A DNA stretch of 32,000 nt from positions 43,040 to 75,039 of the forward strand of contig CAZDOL010000001.1 of the NCBI GenBank assembly GCA_964507075.1, written 5' to 3'. A program made the translations under genes and the position numbers. Of the stretch, positions 1,978 through 28,007 are shown one piece after another. Within the stretch, counting starts at the first letter, position 1. Each line of letters opens with the position of its first letter. Under the pieces are notes generated by a model, which saw only the letters and a program-made list of their open reading frames with translations, did no database searches and was not told the DNA's origin. This DNA comes from an uncultured Gammaproteobacteria bacterium (lineage in GTDB: Bacteria; Patescibacteriota; Patescibacteriia; UBA2591; UBA6264).

Positions 1978-2916
1978 ATGAAAAAAAATAAACCCCCATT
2001 AATAATCATTTGTGGACCAACTGGCTCGGGCAAAAGTTCTCTTGCTTTAAAATTGGCCAAAGGATGTTCAATAAAAAATCAAAATGTTGAAATTATATCC
2101 GCGGACAGCAGGGCTATTTATAAAGGAATGGACATTGGCACTGCCAAGACATTGCCAAGCGATAATAACGGAATCACGCATCACATGATTGACATTGTTG
2201 ACCCAAGTCAAAAATTTACCGTAGCTTTATTTAAAGAAAGGGCCACAAAAATTATTAAAAAAATCCATCAACAAAAAAGAATACCCTTTCTTGTTGGCGG
2301 CACAGGATTATATATCAGCGCCATTGTTGACAACTTAACAATCCCTAAAGTTAAACCAGATGAAAAAATCAGAGCTAAAATGGAAAAAGAAATCAATAAT
2401 AAGGGCCTAGATTTTGTCTGGCAAAAATTATTAAAAATAGATCCACAAGCCAAACACTTTGTGCAAAAAGAAAATCCTCGTCGAGTGATTAGAGCCATAG
2501 AAGTTTGTTTAAAAACAGGACAACCCTTTTCTCAACTACGAACTAAAGCCCAACCAAAATTTGAAACCCTACAAATCGGCCTTAAAACAGAAAGAACAAA
2601 ACTATATTCTCAAATTAATCAAAGGGTAGAACAAATGATTAAAAATGGATTAGTGAAAGAAGTTAGAGAATTGATTAAAAAATATCCCGCATCTAATCCA
2701 GGTTTGACCAGCATCGCTTATCAAGAAATCATATTATATCTGGAAAATAAGATTACACTACAAGAAGCAATTGATTTAATTAAAAAAAATACGCGCCATT
2801 ACGCACGTCGTCAAATAACTTGGTTCAAGAAAGATAAACGCATTCATTGGGTTGCTACATATTCCCAAGCAAATCAACTAATCAAAAATTTTCTGCTTCA
2901 CCAATCAAGAAACTGA
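1978..2916 (+). CDS. miaA: tRNA dimethylallyltransferase
   Basis: P-loop GPTGSGKS close to the N-terminus, and a conserved TRHYARRQITWF C-terminal region. The ORF is open from 1942, but the ATG at 1978 (MKKNKPPLIIICGPTGSGKS) gives the canonical N-terminus. Ends in TGA. Confidence 0.9.
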   Translation: MKKNKPPLIIICGPTGSGKSSLALKLAKGCSIKNQNVEIISADSRAIYKGMDIGTAKTLPSDNNGITHHMIDIVDPSQKFTVALFKERATKIIKKIHQQKRIPFLVGGTGLYISAIVDNLTIPKVKPDEKIRAKMEKEINNKGLDFVWQKLLKIDPQAKHFVQKENPRRVIRAIEVCLKTGQPFSQLRTKAQPKFETLQIGLKTERTKLYSQINQRVEQMIKNGLVKEVRELIKKYPASNPGLTSIAYQEIILYLENKITLQEAIDLIKKNTRHYARRQITWFKKDKRIHWVATYSQANQLIKNFLLHQSRN

Positions 2917-2927
2917 ACACCCTAACA

Positions 2928-2958
2928 AAAAGTTTGGACACCGAGTGTCCAAACTTTT
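2928..2958. repeat. REP-like palindrome, variant TGGACAC (AAAAGTTTGGACAC-CGA-GTGTCCAAACTTTT), at a bidirectional-terminator position
   Basis: Perfect 14-bp stem and 3-nt loop, with an A-run on the left and a T-run on the right. Lies between convergent miaA and the transposase-like gene and abuts the latter's stop codon. Identical copy at 25465..25497. Confidence 0.9.
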
Positions 2959-3642
2959 CTACTCTAATAGAAATCTCTTAATTCGCTTATTTTCCTTTAT
3001 TCTCTTTAAAGAATCTTTAGCAAACCCTTTATAAGCCTCCGCATTGCCAAATTGGTCCAATACAATATCCTTTTCACAAAAACCTTTCTTATTTCTATTG
3101 TTTTTATTAGAATCACTCTCAACGTATTCGTCCCAGCTTGATTTAAAAAGTTCAGTGGCCGAGCCACTGAACTTTTCTAAATTATGTACCTTATAATTTA
3201 AATTAATATAAGTACTTAAGTGCAATAAATATTCATTAGAACCTATATGAATCGCTTGGTATTTCCCTTGACACAATGACCCGCTCCGTTTATATTTTTT
3301 ATTAAAATATTCTGTATATCCAGTGCCTAACCTATGCATAAATTTTTGAATCCCCTTGTCAACTAATTGTTTCAAAATAAAATGATAATGATTCGGATTT
3401 AAGCAATAACAAACAAAATTAACCAATTTTTTCTTTTTGGAAAGTTCAGTGGCCGAGCCACTGAACTTTTTTCTCAATCTCTTTGCTTCATAAATACTAT
3501 CAATTGGATTCATAGTATTAAATTCTTCCATGCTCAAAAAAAATCTATTTAAATCTTCTTGGCATTCAAAAATTATACGCTTATCTACTCCACGATTATA
3601 GATATGATAATATTCGTCATTAACAAATTTAACTTTTCTCAT
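2959..3642 (-). CDS. IS200/RayT-like HUH (Y1) tyrosine transposase (REP-associated tyrosine transposase-like)
   Basis: 227 aa. YHIYNRG N-terminus, HUH motif NPNHYHFIL, FMHRLGTGYTEYFNKKY...G, tyrosine motif STYINLN, and a WSS-like SSWDEY. Flanked and internally punctuated by palindromes of one family. Confidence 0.75.
   Translation of the reverse strand: MRKVKFVNDEYYHIYNRGVDKRIIFECQEDLNRFFLSMEEFNTMNPIDSIYEAKRLRKKFSGSATELSKKKKLVNFVCYCLNPNHYHFILKQLVDKGIQKFMHRLGTGYTEYFNKKYKRSGSLCQGKYQAIHIGSNEYLLHLSTYINLNYKVHNLEKFSGSATELFKSSWDEYVESDSNKNNRNKKGFCEKDIVLDQFGNAEAYKGFAKDSLKRIKENKRIKRFLLE
3146..3176. repeat. REP-like palindrome, variant CAGTGGC, inside the transposase-like CDS (encodes KFSGSATELF)
   Basis: AAAAGTTCAGTGGC-CGA-GCCACTGAACTTTT, a perfect 14-bp stem. 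The same about 30 nt recurs at 3441..3469. Confidence 0.9.
3441..3469. repeat. REP-like palindrome, variant CAGTGGC, inside the transposase-like CDS (encodes KFSGSATELS)
   Basis: AAAGTTCAGTGGC-CGA-GCCACTGAACTTT, a perfect 13-bp stem, read in the same frame as the copy at 3146. Confidence 0.9.
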
Positions 3643-3673
3643 ATATATATTTATATCTCTTTTAAAGACTAAT

Positions 3674-3702
3674 AAAGTTTGGTGACCGAGCCACCAAACT
3701 TT
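3674..3702. repeat. REP-like palindrome, variant TGGTGAC/GCCACCA, directly after the gatB stop codon
   Basis: AAAGTTTGGTGAC-CGA-GCCACCAAACTTT with one A/C mismatch in the stem. Lies between the gatB stop (3703) and the transposase-like gene start (3642). Confidence 0.85.
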
Positions 3703-5202
3703 TTATAAAAATTTTGTTAATAACTTCTTGATTAAATCTGGGCTTATTTGCCCTTTTGTTTTTTTAACTGTTTGGCCTATTAAAAATTGAATGGCATTAG
3801 GATGACCCTTTTTGATTTTATCCACTATTTCAGAATTATTTTTAATAACATCTTGAACAATAACTTCTATCTTTTCTGATTCAATAATTTCCAGAGAACC
3901 AAACTCTAACAACAAAGAGCCAGCATCTTGTCCTGTTTGAAACATTTTTTTCAAAATTTTTCGACCTAAAATATTAGATAACTTTTTCTGATATATTAAA
4001 ATAATAAACTCAGTAAAATTTTCACAAGAAACACTGGATTCTTTTTTATTAGATTCTTGTGAAAAAACTAAATAATAATTGATGAACCAATTGGCAATTA
4101 ATCTAATTATTTTTTTCTTATTTCTTTGCCATATCTCTGGTTCACTAGCGTCCATTCCTTCACAAGAACTAATCCAGTCTTGCATTTTTTTGATAACCTC
4201 TTCTATGAAATACAATCGAGTTGGCAATGCAGTCAATATTCTAATTTCATCTTCTGAAAAGCAATATTTTTTTCGCCAACGCTTCCTTTGCTGAGCTGGC
4301 AATTCGGGCAAAGATTTGCTTAATTTTTTAATATCAAATGGAAATTCTTTGGATTTGGTAAAAAAAACTGGTAGATCTGGCTCCTTAAAATATCTATAAT
4401 CTTTGGTCTTTTCTTTACTTCTCTGCTCAACTGTAATTCCTTTTTGTGCATCCCAACCACGCGTTATCTCTATTTTCTGCACTCTGTTATCGCGCCACAG
4501 CTCAGTCTGTCTTTTGATTTCATACCTTAGAGCATCTTCTACAGCCTTAAATGAGTTAAGGTTTTTTATCTCTGTTTTGGGATAAAGATTATCTCCGTTG
4601 TTTTCTGGTCTTAAAGAAATGTTGACATCACACCTCATCTGCCCATTTTCCATTTCTGCATTGGAAACATTTAATGCCCGAGCTATCTCCTGTAATTCTT
4701 GTAAAAAAAATTTAGCCTGAGAAGGACTCTCTATATCCGGTTTAGTTACTATTTCAGCCAAAGGCACTCCTGCGCGATTAAAATCCAATAAGCTATAACC
4801 TTCTTTTGAATGCAGTAATTTAGCAGTATCTTCCTCAATATGTATTCTCTCTAAATTAATTCTTTGTCCCTTGATGTCCAAATGTCCTCCAATAATTAAA
4901 GGAGAATAATATTGACTAATCTGATATCCTTTGGGCAAGTCTGGATAAAAATAATTTTTACGATCAAACCAAAAACTTTCCGCTACCTCTCCCTTTAATG
5001 CTAACCCTAAAAGCAAAACTTTTTCTATTACTTTTTTGTTTAAAACTGGCAAAACCCCAGGATGACCCAGGCAAGTTGGACAAACATTAATGTTGGGTAA
5101 AACACCCTGAACCTTATTCAAGCAAGAACAGAATAATTTGCTCTTTGTGTTAAGTTCCAAATGAATTTCTAAGCCAATAATAGACTTTAAGTTAAGATGC
5201 AT
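3703..5202 (-). CDS. gatB: Asp/Glu-tRNA amidotransferase subunit B
   Basis: 499 aa. IGLEIHLELNTKSKLFCSC...CPTCLGHPGVLPVLN and RCDVNISL signature regions, with a C-terminal YqeY-like tail. Confidence 0.9.
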   Translation of the reverse strand: MHLNLKSIIGLEIHLELNTKSKLFCSCLNKVQGVLPNINVCPTCLGHPGVLPVLNKKVIEKVLLLGLALKGEVAESFWFDRKNYFYPDLPKGYQISQYYSPLIIGGHLDIKGQRINLERIHIEEDTAKLLHSKEGYSLLDFNRAGVPLAEIVTKPDIESPSQAKFFLQELQEIARALNVSNAEMENGQMRCDVNISLRPENNGDNLYPKTEIKNLNSFKAVEDALRYEIKRQTELWRDNRVQKIEITRGWDAQKGITVEQRSKEKTKDYRYFKEPDLPVFFTKSKEFPFDIKKLSKSLPELPAQQRKRWRKKYCFSEDEIRILTALPTRLYFIEEVIKKMQDWISSCEGMDASEPEIWQRNKKKIIRLIANWFINYYLVFSQESNKKESSVSCENFTEFIILIYQKKLSNILGRKILKKMFQTGQDAGSLLLEFGSLEIIESEKIEVIVQDVIKNNSEIVDKIKKGHPNAIQFLIGQTVKKTKGQISPDLIKKLLTKFL

Positions 5203-6629: not shown

Positions 6630-7006
6630 ATTTTAGATAAACCTATAAGCCGAATTCTGTTCCGTTAATTTTACAAAAAACGGGATGACTATTTATCTAG
6701 ACTTAATGTTACCATTAAACTCTAACGACCTACCGAAATTTGGTCTTGCACTCAAATAAGGATTTAGCCGTTTCATCGTGACCTTTGTTCTATAATCACG
6801 CTCACCCTCTTAAATAAATTTGAGAGGGTGCCTCAACTTTTGCAAGTTTTGGCGTCTCTGTTCGCACCTCTACTGATTTCGTCTAAAATAGATAAAATCA
6901 GCGACGGGAATTACCCGCTATCCTTCTCCTTGTCGCCAAGGGAGTGTTCGGACTTTCCTCTTAACAACCCATAAGGGCTATCAAGCAGCCATCTAGTTTA
7001 TCTACT
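6630..7006 (-). ncRNA. rnpB: RNase P RNA (bacterial type)
   Basis: A 473-nt ORF-free gap. The minus strand carries GAGGAAAGTCCGAAC (P4 5' strand / CR-I) and ACAGAATTCGGCTTATAGG (CR-V, P4 3' strand). Terminal P1 pairs TAGATAAAC (about 7004) with GTTTATCTA (about 6634). Ends are approximate (+/-10 nt). Confidence 0.85.
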
Positions 7007-9166: not shown

Positions 9167-9191
9167 TTGGTGGCCGAGCCACCAAACTTTT
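9167..9191. repeat. REP-like palindrome, variant TGGTGGC with a degenerate left arm, after the alr stop codon
   Basis: TTGGTGGC-CGA-GCCACCAAACTTTT. 8-bp perfect stem with the same loop and right flank as the other family members. Lies between alr and recJ. Confidence 0.75.
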
Positions 9192-14587: not shown

Positions 14588-14794
14588 TTACTCTCCTAAA
14601 GAGGTTAAGGGCTCTACAATTATGGCTTGATTGGGACAATTCTCTTCTGCTAATTTATTGCAACCCAAAATTTCAACCGAAGATTTCAAAACTATTGCTT
14701 TTCCATCCTCGCCCATTTCATAATTGGCAGGGCAAACAGCGCTACAGGCGCCACACCCAATGCATTTGTCCTTGGTTAAAAGAATCTTGAACAT
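14588..14794 (-). CDS. Small 4Fe-4S ferredoxin
   Basis: 68 aa. CIGCGACSAVCP plus a distal CP. Confidence 0.75.
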   Translation of the reverse strand: MFKILLTKDKCIGCGACSAVCPANYEMGEDGKAIVLKSSVEILGCNKLAEENCPNQAIIVEPLTSLGE

Positions 14795-14806
14795 ATTTTT
14801 TCTGAA

Positions 14807-15076
14807 TTATTTCTTGCCTTTTCCCCCTTTTTCCTCTTTTGTGTCCTTAAAGACCTTTTTTATATCTTGAGCGCCATCCCGAACTTCATCTTTCATCTCT
14901 TTAATCTCATGAGCTGCTTTTTTGGCAATATCTAAAAATTTATCTTTAGCTTTTCCTATCTTTTCTTTTAATTCGCCCCTAGTTTTTGTTCCAGATTCTT
15001 TAGCGAAAAGCAATCCTAAAATAGCGCCAAAAATACTGCCCAAAAAGCCGGCTTTAAAAATTTTTTTAATAGACAT
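14807..15076 (-). CDS. YtxH-like small membrane-anchored protein
   Basis: 89 aa. N-terminal glycine-rich TM helix (GFLGSIFGAILGLLFA) followed by a charged helical tail. Confidence 0.55.
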   Translation of the reverse strand: MSIKKIFKAGFLGSIFGAILGLLFAKESGTKTRGELKEKIGKAKDKFLDIAKKAAHEIKEMKDEVRDGAQDIKKVFKDTKEEKGGKGKK

Positions 15077-15087
15077 AAAATTTAAAA

Positions 15088-15957
15088 TTAATTTAATTTA
15101 TTATCCTTTAATTTTAACACTTTTGGATTATTTAATAAAGAAGGATACAAATATTTTTTCTTTTTATTCTTTTTTATTTTATCCCAACCAGAAAGAATAA
15201 CAACTGCTTCCGAAGCCACTAAACCTAATTTCTTTTCATCCTCCTCTTTTACGACAAATTTATCTTTATCTTCTGAAAAACTATCTACTATTAAACAAAT
15301 AGCTCCAGCTCGCAAATTATAAAGACTGGCCAATGTTAAGATTGGGGCAACTTCCATTTCAATATTGCTAACTTTTGCCATTTGTAGCTTAGAAATAAGT
15401 TCCTTGCTTTCTGGGTTAGAATAACCTCCGAATCCTTCACGTCCTTCTCCTACATAAAAAGAATCTTGACTAGCAGTTAATCCTAAATGATATTTAATAT
15501 CTAACTTCTCGCAGGCCTCAATTAAGGCCAACACTACTTCATAATTAGCCAAAGCAGGATATTCTAAAAAAATATAATCTTGGCTAACACCTTCTAATCT
15601 AACTGCGCCCGTAGAAATTACAAAATCTCCTAATTGAATCTCTGGCTGCAAAGCACCAGCTGTTCCCACGCGAATAAATGTATCTGCCCCCAAACGAGCA
15701 GCTTCTTCTATGGCAATTGTGGCTGAAGAGCCTCCAATCCCAGTTGAAAGACAAGAAATATCCACTCCCTTAAATTTGCCTCTCATAGAAAAAAATTCCC
15801 TATTTTCTGCTACTTTTTTCTTTCTATCCCAAACTTGGGCAATTTTATTAACCCTTTGGGGGTCGCCTGGTAAGAGAAGATAATTAGCTAAATCACCAGC
15901 TCCACAACCAATATGATATTGTTTTTTTTTCTTGGAACTTATTTTTTTTAATGGCAT
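15088..15957 (-). CDS. Nucleoside phosphorylase (PNP/UDP family, uridine phosphorylase-like)
   Basis: 289 aa. LLPGDPQRV, STGIGGSSATIAIEE, RVGTAGA and NIEMEVA motifs, with Lys-rich termini. Confidence 0.75.
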   Translation of the reverse strand: MPLKKISSKKKKQYHIGCGAGDLANYLLLPGDPQRVNKIAQVWDRKKKVAENREFFSMRGKFKGVDISCLSTGIGGSSATIAIEEAARLGADTFIRVGTAGALQPEIQLGDFVISTGAVRLEGVSQDYIFLEYPALANYEVVLALIEACEKLDIKYHLGLTASQDSFYVGEGREGFGGYSNPESKELISKLQMAKVSNIEMEVAPILTLASLYNLRAGAICLIVDSFSEDKDKFVVKEEDEKKLGLVASEAVVILSGWDKIKKNKKKKYLYPSLLNNPKVLKLKDNKLN

Positions 15958-24651: not shown

Positions 24652-24726
24652 GCCCCTATAGTTCAACGGATAGAACGAGAGACTTCTAATCTCTAGATAG
24701 AGGTTCGATTCCTCTTGGGGGTACCA
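24652..24726 (+). tRNA. tRNA-Arg (anticodon TCT), CCA encoded
   Basis: Hand-folded cloverleaf. Acceptor GCCCCTA/TGGGGGT (two G-T wobbles), D arm GTTC-AACGGATA-GAAC, anticodon arm AGAGA-CTTCTAA-TCTCT, T arm AGAGG-TTCGATT-CCTCT, discriminator A, CCA. Confidence 0.9.
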
Positions 24727-25313: not shown

Positions 25314-25388
25314 GGCGACCTTGGTGTAGGAGTAGCACAAAAGCCTGTGGAGCTTTCGGCAGGGGTGCAAATCCCCTAGGTCGCCCCA
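25314..25388 (+). tRNA. tRNA-His (anticodon GTG) with encoded G-1:C73 and CCA; atypical T loop
   Basis: G-1, acceptor GCGACCT/AGGTCGC, D arm GTGT-AGGAGTA-GCAC, anticodon arm AAAGC-CTGTGGA-GCTTT, T arm AGGGG-TGCAAAT-CCCCT, discriminator C, CCA. Starts 10 nt after the HNH stop codon. Confidence 0.8.
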
Positions 25389-25464: not shown

Positions 25465-25497
25465 AAAAAGTTTGGACACCGAGTGTCCAAACTTTTT
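25465..25497. repeat. REP-like palindrome, variant TGGACAC, identical to the copy at 2928..2958
   Basis: AAAAAGTTTGGACAC-CGA-GTGTCCAAACTTTTT. Lies between the tRNA locus (+) and the convergent minus-strand gene ending at 25520. Confidence 0.9.
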
Positions 25498-27982: not shown

Positions 27983-28007
27983 TTTTTGGAGACTTAGTCT
28001 CCAAAAA
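27983..28007. terminator. Palindromic hairpin with A/T-run flanks (bidirectional terminator-like) after the giant gene
   Basis: TTTTTGGAGAC-TTA-GTCTCCAAAAA, an 11-bp stem. Located 88 nt downstream of the stop at 28095. Confidence 0.55.

Follow-up and report, generated by a model that had tools for sequence, protein, structure and literature searches.

Palindromes in frame within, and bracketing, a RAYT-like Y1 HUH gene of Patescibacteria

The 32,000-nucleotide stretch of contig CAZDOL010000001.1 (assembly GCA_964507075.1), hereafter the window, carries between gatB and miaA a gene for a predicted Y1 HUH enzyme related to the REP-associated tyrosine transposases (RAYTs; REP, repetitive extragenic palindrome). 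Two copies of one palindrome lie in frame inside this gene, and two related hairpins bracket it. Coordinates are collected in Table 1. Below, the locus is described, its counterparts in other genomes are compared, and possible origins of the intragenic copies are weighed.

The RAYT-like gene and its hairpins

The 30-nt sequence AAAGTTCAGTGGCCGAGCCACTGAACTTTT occurs exactly twice on the + strand of the window, at 3147-3176 and 3441-3470, and a search of 100 dinucleotide-preserving shuffles gave no match. Both copies are perfect palindromes with stems of 14 bp and 13 bp, respectively, and a loop of 3 nt. Folded as single-stranded DNA (ssDNA), they reach -15.2 and -13.8 kcal/mol (z = -8.2 and -6.6). 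An Rfam scan of positions 2700-3900 returned no RNA family at the gathering score. Both copies fall within the open reading frame (ORF) 2959-3642(-), which encodes 227 aa, and each is translated as KFSGSATEL, at residues 59-67 and 157-165. An earlier reading of the sequence alone (the original prediction) had proposed a 30-nt repeat present twice in one ORF, read in the same frame before the HUH motif and after the catalytic Tyr, and all of this is borne out. Its spacing of 295 nt and its starting positions are corrected here to 294 nt, or 98 codons, with starts at 3147 and 3441. The downstream copy, site 2, directly follows the catalytic-Tyr helix and precedes a conserved SSW motif.

An independent Joint Genome Institute (JGI) contig, L080, carries identical hairpins at all four positions with 99.3-99.5% nucleotide identity; it differs from the window by 26 mismatches over 11.7 kb and by two amino acids in the RAYT-like protein. 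This contig excludes an artefact of assembly, as do the hairpin pairs that most orthologues have at both sites.

The original prediction did not describe the two palindromes that bracket the ORF (2928-2958 and 3674-3702) or three dispersed copies elsewhere in the window. The bracketing palindromes share one design, AAAGTT...CCGAG...AACTTT. The upstream hairpin lies between the gatB stop and the RAYT-like start, and the downstream hairpin lies between the convergent RAYT-like and miaA genes. Translated in frame, the flanking palindrome of the window would read KFGHRVSKL. The upstream type is also present as a perfect palindrome away from the gene (TTGGTGGC, 9167-9185), from which the internal copies differ by TG>CA in all four arms. 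These are eight coordinated changes, and copying is therefore the only explanation for them.

The product of the gene is, as judged from its sequence and a structural model, a Y1 HUH (IS200-like/RAYT-like) enzyme with the features that define the Y1 HUH superfamily, a HuH motif and one catalytic Tyr on a C-terminal helix within an IS200-like fold. The HuH motif is H85-Y86-H87 (window 3382-3390) and the catalytic residue is Tyr145 (3208-3210); H85, H87, and Y145 are invariant across 120 homologues. The Tyr motif reads Y[IV]NLN followed by a variable residue that is not Pro, and it lacks the class-2 Y---NP pattern. Pfam assigns the 227-aa ORF to PF01797 Y1_Tnp (E 3.3e-7, 30.9 bits against a cut-off of 23), whereas NCBIfam REP_Tyr_transpos NF047646 scores weakly (20.3 bits against a cut-off of 80). 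Database searches returned 4159 homologues; the matches listed are from Patescibacteria/Parcubacteria, and some sources give them the name RayT. An AlphaFold2 (AF2) model built on the 120-homologue alignment reached a mean predicted confidence (pLDDT) of 79.4 and a pTM of 0.78. The best PDB match of this model by Foldseek is 4er8_A, the E. coli REP-associated tyrosine transposase with a REP hairpin, and IS608 TnpA comes next. Sequence searches of the PDB with the window protein and with the 120-sequence profile gave no meaningful match; the fold search alone succeeded. Pfam detected no helix-turn-helix (HTH) or DnaA_C tail in the protein, and among the window ORFs none of tnpB size adjoins the gene.

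The model also places the two sites. For site 1, the linker is modelled as a loop that joins helix 50-59 to strand 74-81, with low confidence at residues 62-69 (pLDDT <50). Site 2 follows the Tyr helix and is modelled at pLDDT ~70-79.

Table 1. Features of the window, occupancy of the four hairpin positions among orthologous loci, and additional RAYT-like genes. Window features are given in window positions, and entries with a locus name in positions of that locus.
Feature	Location	Strand	Description
RAYT-like Y1 HUH enzyme gene (predicted)	2959..3642	-	227 aa; ORF list, Pfam, homologues, AF2 model, Foldseek
Upstream hairpin	3674..3702	-	TTTGGTGGC / GTCACCAAA, one mismatch; centre 46 nt before ATG
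Site-1 intragenic hairpin	3441..3470	-	13-bp stem, coding-strand loop TCG; K59-L67, linker before HuH strand
Site-2 intragenic hairpin	3146..3176	-	14-bp stem, coding-strand loop TCG; K157-L165
Downstream hairpin	2928..2958	-	TTTGGACAC stem, perfect, 14 bp; starts directly after RAYT stop
Dispersed intergenic copy	9167..9185		TTGGTGGCTCGGCCACCAA; between alr-like and recJ-like ORFs
Dispersed intergenic copy	25465..25497		identical to downstream hairpin (TTTGGACAC type)
Dispersed intergenic hairpin, related type	27983..28007		TTTTTGGAGAC-TTA-GTCTCCAAAAA
RNase P RNA class A	6630-7004	-	116.5 bits
tRNA-Arg(TCT)	24652-24726	+	
tRNA-His(GTG)	25315-25388	+	
Upstream hairpin, orthologues	71/80 loci		centre most often 26 nt before ATG
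Site-1 hairpin, orthologues	50/80 loci		linker before HuH strand
Site-2 hairpin, orthologues	52/80 loci		linker after Tyr helix
Downstream hairpin, orthologues	60/80 loci		centre 11-18 nt after stop
Second RAYT-like genes	L030:100-597, L033:451-1095, L040:7314-7721, L022:2137-2658, L023:3743-4345	not marked	
Second RAYT-like genes	L066:4830-5291, L073:7243-7683	-	

The alr-like and recJ-like labels beside the copy at 9167-9185 are Pfam labels on the syntenic contig L080. The copy at 25465-25497 is placed like a terminator: the genes on either side converge, and tRNA-His ends 77 nt before it.

Conservation, copying, and spread of the hairpins

The four-hairpin layout was followed in 79 fetched genomic loci with orthologues at 46-65% identity. 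All apparently derive from Patescibacteria-type metagenome-assembled genomes, several of which carry other depositor labels. Hairpins were called with a stem of at least 8 and at most one mismatch, and the census covers 80 loci (Table 1). At least three of the four positions are filled in 61/80, and a hairpin that overlaps the stop codon in ~10 further loci brings the downstream total to ~70/80. This arrangement of four sites has been conserved throughout a large Patescibacteria family, and the window is one instance of it. The proposal that the gene of the HUH enzyme carries the enzyme's own candidate substrate gains support, as in most of the 80 loci the hairpins that flank the gene are of the family found inside it. 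In the proteins, almost all homologues show two matching peptides at these sites, and the peptide varies between homologues (KFRSSAPKLF twice in P0004; KFGHRVSKLF twice in P0015). Local multiplication was seen in P0009, which has two copies at site 2 and three in the protein (KFGSSAPKL...KFGSSAPKL), and an intragenic hairpin is partially duplicated in tandem at L007:10469-10543 (FEDFGDLEDFGDLVSK).

A syntenic orthologue, L081, has the gene order gatB-RAYT-miaA-prsW, and its products are 72% (RAYT), 80% (GatB), and 83% (MiaA) identical to those of the window. Its stem (TTTAGGAGC) differs from that of the window and is identical at all four L081 positions. Among the loci, small syntenic groups occur, and 278 neighbours fall into 206 neighbour clusters. 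The locus L082 (P0002, 78% identical) carries a tandem pair of hairpins upstream of the gene (L082:1060-1147). No GatB-like sequence was seen upstream in L082, where the upstream ORF end is QueA-like by eye; synteny is therefore not universal among close relatives.

Within-locus copies evolve in concert yet differ between genomes. Of 281 within-locus pairs, 71.5% agree fully in the apical 8 nt of the stem, versus 3.4% of 7451 between-locus pairs at the same position. Likewise, in 53% of 118 metagenome proteins the two sites of one protein agree at 6/7 residues or more, versus 5.4% of cross-protein controls. The stems also covary. In a site-2 alignment (A3) anchored on the codon of the invariant His153 and the SSW codons only, and not fitted to structure, compensatory double changes appear in 13/13 stem pairs. 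Double-change cells number 129, against 45.5 +/- 5.7 in shuffles. Pairing holds in 81.8% of cells, compared with 19-49% with slid partners, and G:U pairs are rare. The basal TTGG/CCAA is nearly invariant, while each of the apical 4 bp takes three to five Watson-Crick pair types.

As for the reading phase, 86/87 intragenic hairpins with a loop of 3 nt are read such that a single codon coincides with the loop, so that flipping a hairpin alters the central residue only, as in L012 (LGHRVSK / LGHSVSK). Outside genes, stop-type loops (TAA/TGA) and their complements are found 25 and 22 times, whereas within genes the count is 30 in the sense orientation and 0 as a stop. A single flip would turn each of these 30/87 intragenic loops (TCA/TTA) into a stop codon. 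Stems are perfect in 180/243 hairpins, and loop orientation relative to the gene is near random between positions.

Between His153 and Ser168, the site-2 linker has a median of 11 aa with a hairpin and 11 aa without, and the site-1 linker is ~4 aa longer with a hairpin (20 versus 16). Some hairpin-free members have linkers such as HGLENVLYKSSW, which we take to resemble the usual COG1943 GL...Y.WSS linker. At a given intragenic site, 28-30/80 genes lack a hairpin and retain all catalytic residues. In a neighbour-joining (NJ) tree with the variable linkers masked, hairpin-bearing genes occupy all major branches, and hairpin-free genes are nested in several places. The original prediction had raised the question whether the two segments, of ten codons each, are lineage-specific insertions. 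A simple ten-codon insertion is rejected, given that linker lengths and alignments show an existing linker overprinted: the site-2 linker is equally long in either state, and only site 1 is longer, by ~4 aa. Lineage-specific gain is rejected as well, with both sites occupied in most orthologues and on every major branch of the tree. Linker lengths are alike and hairpins are tree-wide; the hairpins have therefore been written over two flexible linkers that already existed. Either they are old and were lost in places, or they have been renewed time and again; with midpoint rooting and without an outgroup, the tree does not separate these two histories.

Hairpins matching those of the locus are concentrated at the gene. 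There are ~3 in ~1.1 kb at the gene itself; per 10 kb, the density is 0.9 at a distance of 250-1000 nt and falls to 0.14-0.2 farther out. The flanks, 1.02 Mb in total, hold 27 (0.26 per 10 kb), from which tens per Mb are extrapolated, and in the window three dispersed copies fall within 31 kb. When metagenomes were scanned for the internal variant in either loop orientation, there were 0 hits from a collection that evidently lacks the JGI carrier contig, and this result is uninformative on copy number.

The same hairpins have entered other genes. In the GatB ORF of L063 (14470-15912), the hairpin lies in frame three times, at 14856-14902 and 15533-15561. The 16-aa insert ELGNSVSKCLLETEFP of this protein corresponds to two adjacent hairpins and is absent from GatB of the window and of L081. 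As the sequence comparison indicates, the L063 GatB hairpins are true in-frame insertions, a decoration of a housekeeping protein like that by Rickettsia palindromic elements (RPEs). Further in-frame hairpins occur in ORFs identified by eye from motifs as LigA-like (L018:1598-1618) and KsgA/RsmA-like (L053:5645-5667 and L061:10011-10033), and in another ORF (L059:3548-3570). They are read in two different phases, as LGxxxSK or LExELPS.

A second RAYT-like gene lies within 10 kb in 12/79 loci (Table 1). These are divergent paralogues or a fragment, not identical insertion sequence (IS) copies. Every one of the paralogues, many of which show the classical YIHLNP motif, is flanked on both sides by a hairpin type peculiar to it. 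Often a further copy lies in frame within the paralogue, for the most part in the loop before HuH that is also used as site 1, and in one case between HuH and Tyr. In L001, a truncated RAYT-like copy (14728-14982) has 85% nucleotide identity to the intact copy. The homologous stretch runs from just past the point where an upstream hairpin would lie to precisely the 3' foot of the site-1 hairpin, whose loop is flipped from TCA to TGA, a stop. Other palindromic repeats were noted at L007:2747-4403, ~6 kb upstream of the RAYT-like gene, with GAGACTCGGTTTCCCGTTGGAAACCGAGTCTC present five times and TTTACACAGGTTGAACCTGTGTAAA three times.

Origin of the intragenic copies

The locus is best explained as REPtron-like, with its cognate hairpin also kept, by copying at the DNA level, in two permissive linkers of the enzyme's own gene (probability about 0.6). 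The two palindromes would be copies of a hairpin element that belongs to the RAYT-like Y1 HUH protein, a putative ssDNA nuclease/transferase. Together with the bracketing hairpins they would make up a nest, with one hairpin upstream of the start, one after the stop, and two in the flexible linkers that flank the HuH-to-Tyr core. Read in phase, with the loop as a codon, each intragenic copy would supply a short Gly/Ser/Thr/Lys-rich linker that the protein tolerates. Neighbouring hairpins would pass the apical stem-loop to one another in register, with the conserved basal stem as primer. Binding and cutting of hairpins in ssDNA is established for IS200/IS605 TnpA and E. coli TnpAREP, and for this reason the RAYT-like enzyme is the most likely driver, through preferential action at its own locus. 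Template switching by the host, which perfects palindromes, could contribute or suffice. On this view, hairpins inside the gene would mostly be tolerated side effects of hairpin mobilisation in its vicinity and would not serve as a dedicated terminator.

Several points weigh against this explanation. We infer only by analogy that the RAYT-like enzyme binds or cuts the hairpins, which do not have the canonical 5' GT[AG]G tag of REPs. Their genomic copy number is seemingly low (~0.26 per 10 kb of flank). About one third of the orthologues have no detectable hairpin at one intragenic site, and an intragenic hairpin is therefore dispensable. The exact sites and phase, kept over 46-78% protein identity, could reflect a selected function. 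Finally, homogenisation could be the work of host replication or repair through template switching, with the enzyme uninvolved.

Selected function leads to the possible, if doubtful, alternative that the intragenic hairpins are cis-regulatory sites. The enzyme, RNA polymerase, or the ribosome would meet them in the gene or its mRNA, and a potentially toxic nuclease would be limited via binding, cleavage, attenuation, or premature termination. Use of the same two sites in one phase across 46-78% identity, on every major branch, fits such a role, as do the stability of the hairpins and a coding-strand T-run after the site-2 copy in the small clade of the window. The 30/87 loops that are one flip from a stop also fit, together with the truncated L001 copy and its flipped TGA loop. 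However, the original prediction of an intragenic terminator holds only in that the T-run after the 3146 copy exists. A conserved terminator is rejected, given that a run of at least five Ts follows just 3/52 site-2 and 0/50 site-1 hairpins, and a consensus terminator scan called none at either intragenic copy. Regulation by the hairpins also sits poorly with the 28-30/80 genes that lack one at a given site and keep intact catalytic residues, with the near-random loop orientation between positions, and with the same hairpins in unrelated genes.

Host replication and repair alone, with no part played by the encoded enzyme, are rather unlikely to account for the homogeneity and perfection of the palindromes. 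Intrastrand template switching would perfect quasi-palindromes and flip loops, and slippage or gene conversion would act between nearby copies. The mostly perfect stems (180/243) and the free flipping of loops (25 stop-type versus 22 complements outside genes) are what such processes would leave. A near-invariant basal TTGG/CCAA under a variable apical 4 bp and loop is likewise expected for patch conversion primed on the basal stem, and the basal bases kept by position, intragenic versus extragenic (CAACTTGG versus CACTTGG), agree with it. Left unexplained are the clustering at RAYT-like genes far above the density of the flanks, the separate hairpin type of each paralogous RAYT-like gene, and the arrival of new in-frame copies in distant genes. 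It is hardly credible that the repeat is a protein-level motif, namely a selected duplicated peptide, or a chance or assembly duplication in which the DNA palindrome is incidental. The pattern (K/Q)(L/F)G-x-x-x-x-(S/P)K(L/S) does recur at both sites in many homologues. However, the repeat is nucleotide-identical to non-coding copies outside the ORF, both arms change together, and flipped loops alter the central residue only. Moreover, no shuffle matches, an independent assembly has the same sequence, and orthologues with the peptide but non-palindromic synonymous codons are not the rule.

A more speculative and distinctly improbable idea is that the four-hairpin scaffold is a working part, a reversible and self-limiting off-switch built from the enzyme's own substrate. 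Either loop inversion or in-frame excision between hairpin feet could operate it, carried out by the enzyme or by hairpin-driven template switching. Such self-switching would be possible because identical direct hairpins bracket exactly the catalytic core (294 nt, 98 codons) and about one third of the intragenic loops would become stops if flipped. The truncated L001 copy with its TGA loop and the ~50:50 orientation of extragenic loops are compatible with it.

Comparison with known systems

For the study of how RAYT hairpins spread and are maintained, and of how enzyme and repeat co-evolve, the Patescibacteria clade offers a compact natural system. Four cognate hairpins lie in ~1 kb, two of them under coding constraint, and copying, flipping, and decay can be read from their sequences. 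The four are also defined substrates for biochemistry. In addition, they are tied to a RAYT-like branch whose motifs resemble those of a subclass reported as hairpin-free, and they add Patescibacteria, with their reduced genomes, to the organisms in which proteins are decorated by in-frame palindromes, so far Rickettsia and certain bacteria rich in REPs.

Insertion sequences of the IS200/IS605 type have multiple near-identical copies per genome, a Y---Q motif, distinct left-end and right-end (LE/RE) hairpins, and often tnpB. The window locus resembles IS200/IS605 TnpA in the HUH/Tyr fold and in the hairpins at both gene ends. However, it has neither tnpB nor a Y---Q motif, it is syntenic with a 72%-identical orthologue, and the second copies in other loci are divergent paralogues. 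The window locus does not have the defining features of an IS200/IS605 insertion sequence.

The E. coli RAYT/TnpAREP (PDB 4ER8; PMC3479197; Nunvar 2010, PMC2817692) is the best structural match, and its gene is also bracketed by cognate hairpins. Each TnpAREP enzyme has its own hairpin family (PMC6006769). A cognate repeat on both gene flanks, as in a REPtron, is found in the window and in the wider set (71/80 upstream, 60/80 downstream, stems matching). Unlike the window hairpins, E. coli REPs are imperfect, extragenic, and tagged with GTAG, and they number in the hundreds. In REPtrons, the cognate repeat is typically scattered between genes in >100 copies per genome, and the RAYT gene itself is low-copy and inherited vertically, as a domesticated gene. 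In the listed sequences, inspection found no 5' GT[AG]G at the hairpin foot: extragenic copies read 5'-(C)CACTTGG...CCAAGTG(G)-3' and those of the window AAAGTTTGG...CCAAACTTT, which is symmetric. Intragenic REPs are not mentioned by Nunvar (2010; PMC2817692), and a literature search on RAYT/REP in Patescibacteria found no paper on in-gene hairpins.

By motif comparison only, the window protein (NHYH, FQ, YINLN, SSW) resembles TnpAY1 subclass 2.1, which corresponds to Bertels Group 1 or TIRYT. Subclass 2.1 has NH[YF]H, FQ or W[EQ], Y[IV]HLNP, an SS tail, and an HTH-like C-terminal domain, and is reported to lack REP-like sequences nearby (PMC6006769). Its median length is 238 aa versus 227 aa for the window protein. 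The Tyr motif of the subclass ends in NP, whereas the window family lacks the Pro and clearly has hairpins. Group 1 RAYT flanking 16-mers have ~12 occurrences per replicon (Bertels et al., 2017; PMC5581495), and the low density of hairpins in the Patescibacteria flanks is in line with such low copy numbers. De Nocera et al. (2013; PMC3733652) describe intragenic REPs in many genes, and self-complementarity in part of the TIRYT repeats.

RPEs had been named as the best-known precedent. As summarised at second hand in PMC3733652, they are Rickettsia-specific families of palindromic repeats, in frame within many unrelated protein genes of a reduced genome. The analogy is apt because the hairpins of the RAYT-like loci have also truly been inserted, in frame, into genes other than that of the enzyme, L063 GatB among them. 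As far as that summary goes, the likeness is one of behaviour only, an in-frame insertion tolerated in linkers, here in GatB, LigA-like, and KsgA-like ORFs. That account does not report RPEs as tied to a cognate Y1 enzyme gene, and both organism and sequences differ. The elements described here are simple hairpins of 19-45 nt, concentrated at and inside the RAYT-like gene.

The closest precedent is instead found among TnpAREP enzymes themselves. Frame-keeping REPs within tnpAREP were described as a "unique feature" of subclass 2.4 (Quentin, Siguier, Chandler, and Fichant, 2018; BMC Genomics 19:475; PMC6006769), which has the motifs NH[IFV]H / WQ / YIxNNP and occurs mainly in Cyanobacteria and Bacteroidetes (PMC6006769). 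As in that subclass, a Y1 HUH gene is flanked by cognate REP hairpins and has in-frame copies within its own coding sequence. The REP copies of subclass 2.4 lie in a peripheral variable region of the protein, whereas the window family has its two sites on either side of the HuH-Tyr interval, at places that are fixed from member to member. The window family also differs in its motifs (NHYH / FQ / Y[IV]NLN / SSW), its occurrence in Patescibacteria, and its short perfect palindromes lacking GT[AG]G; by motifs and hairpin position, the window protein falls outside subclass 2.4. In-frame REPs in tnpAREP genes are already published, and the present case is in a different clade and phylum, with different motifs, hairpin type, and sites.

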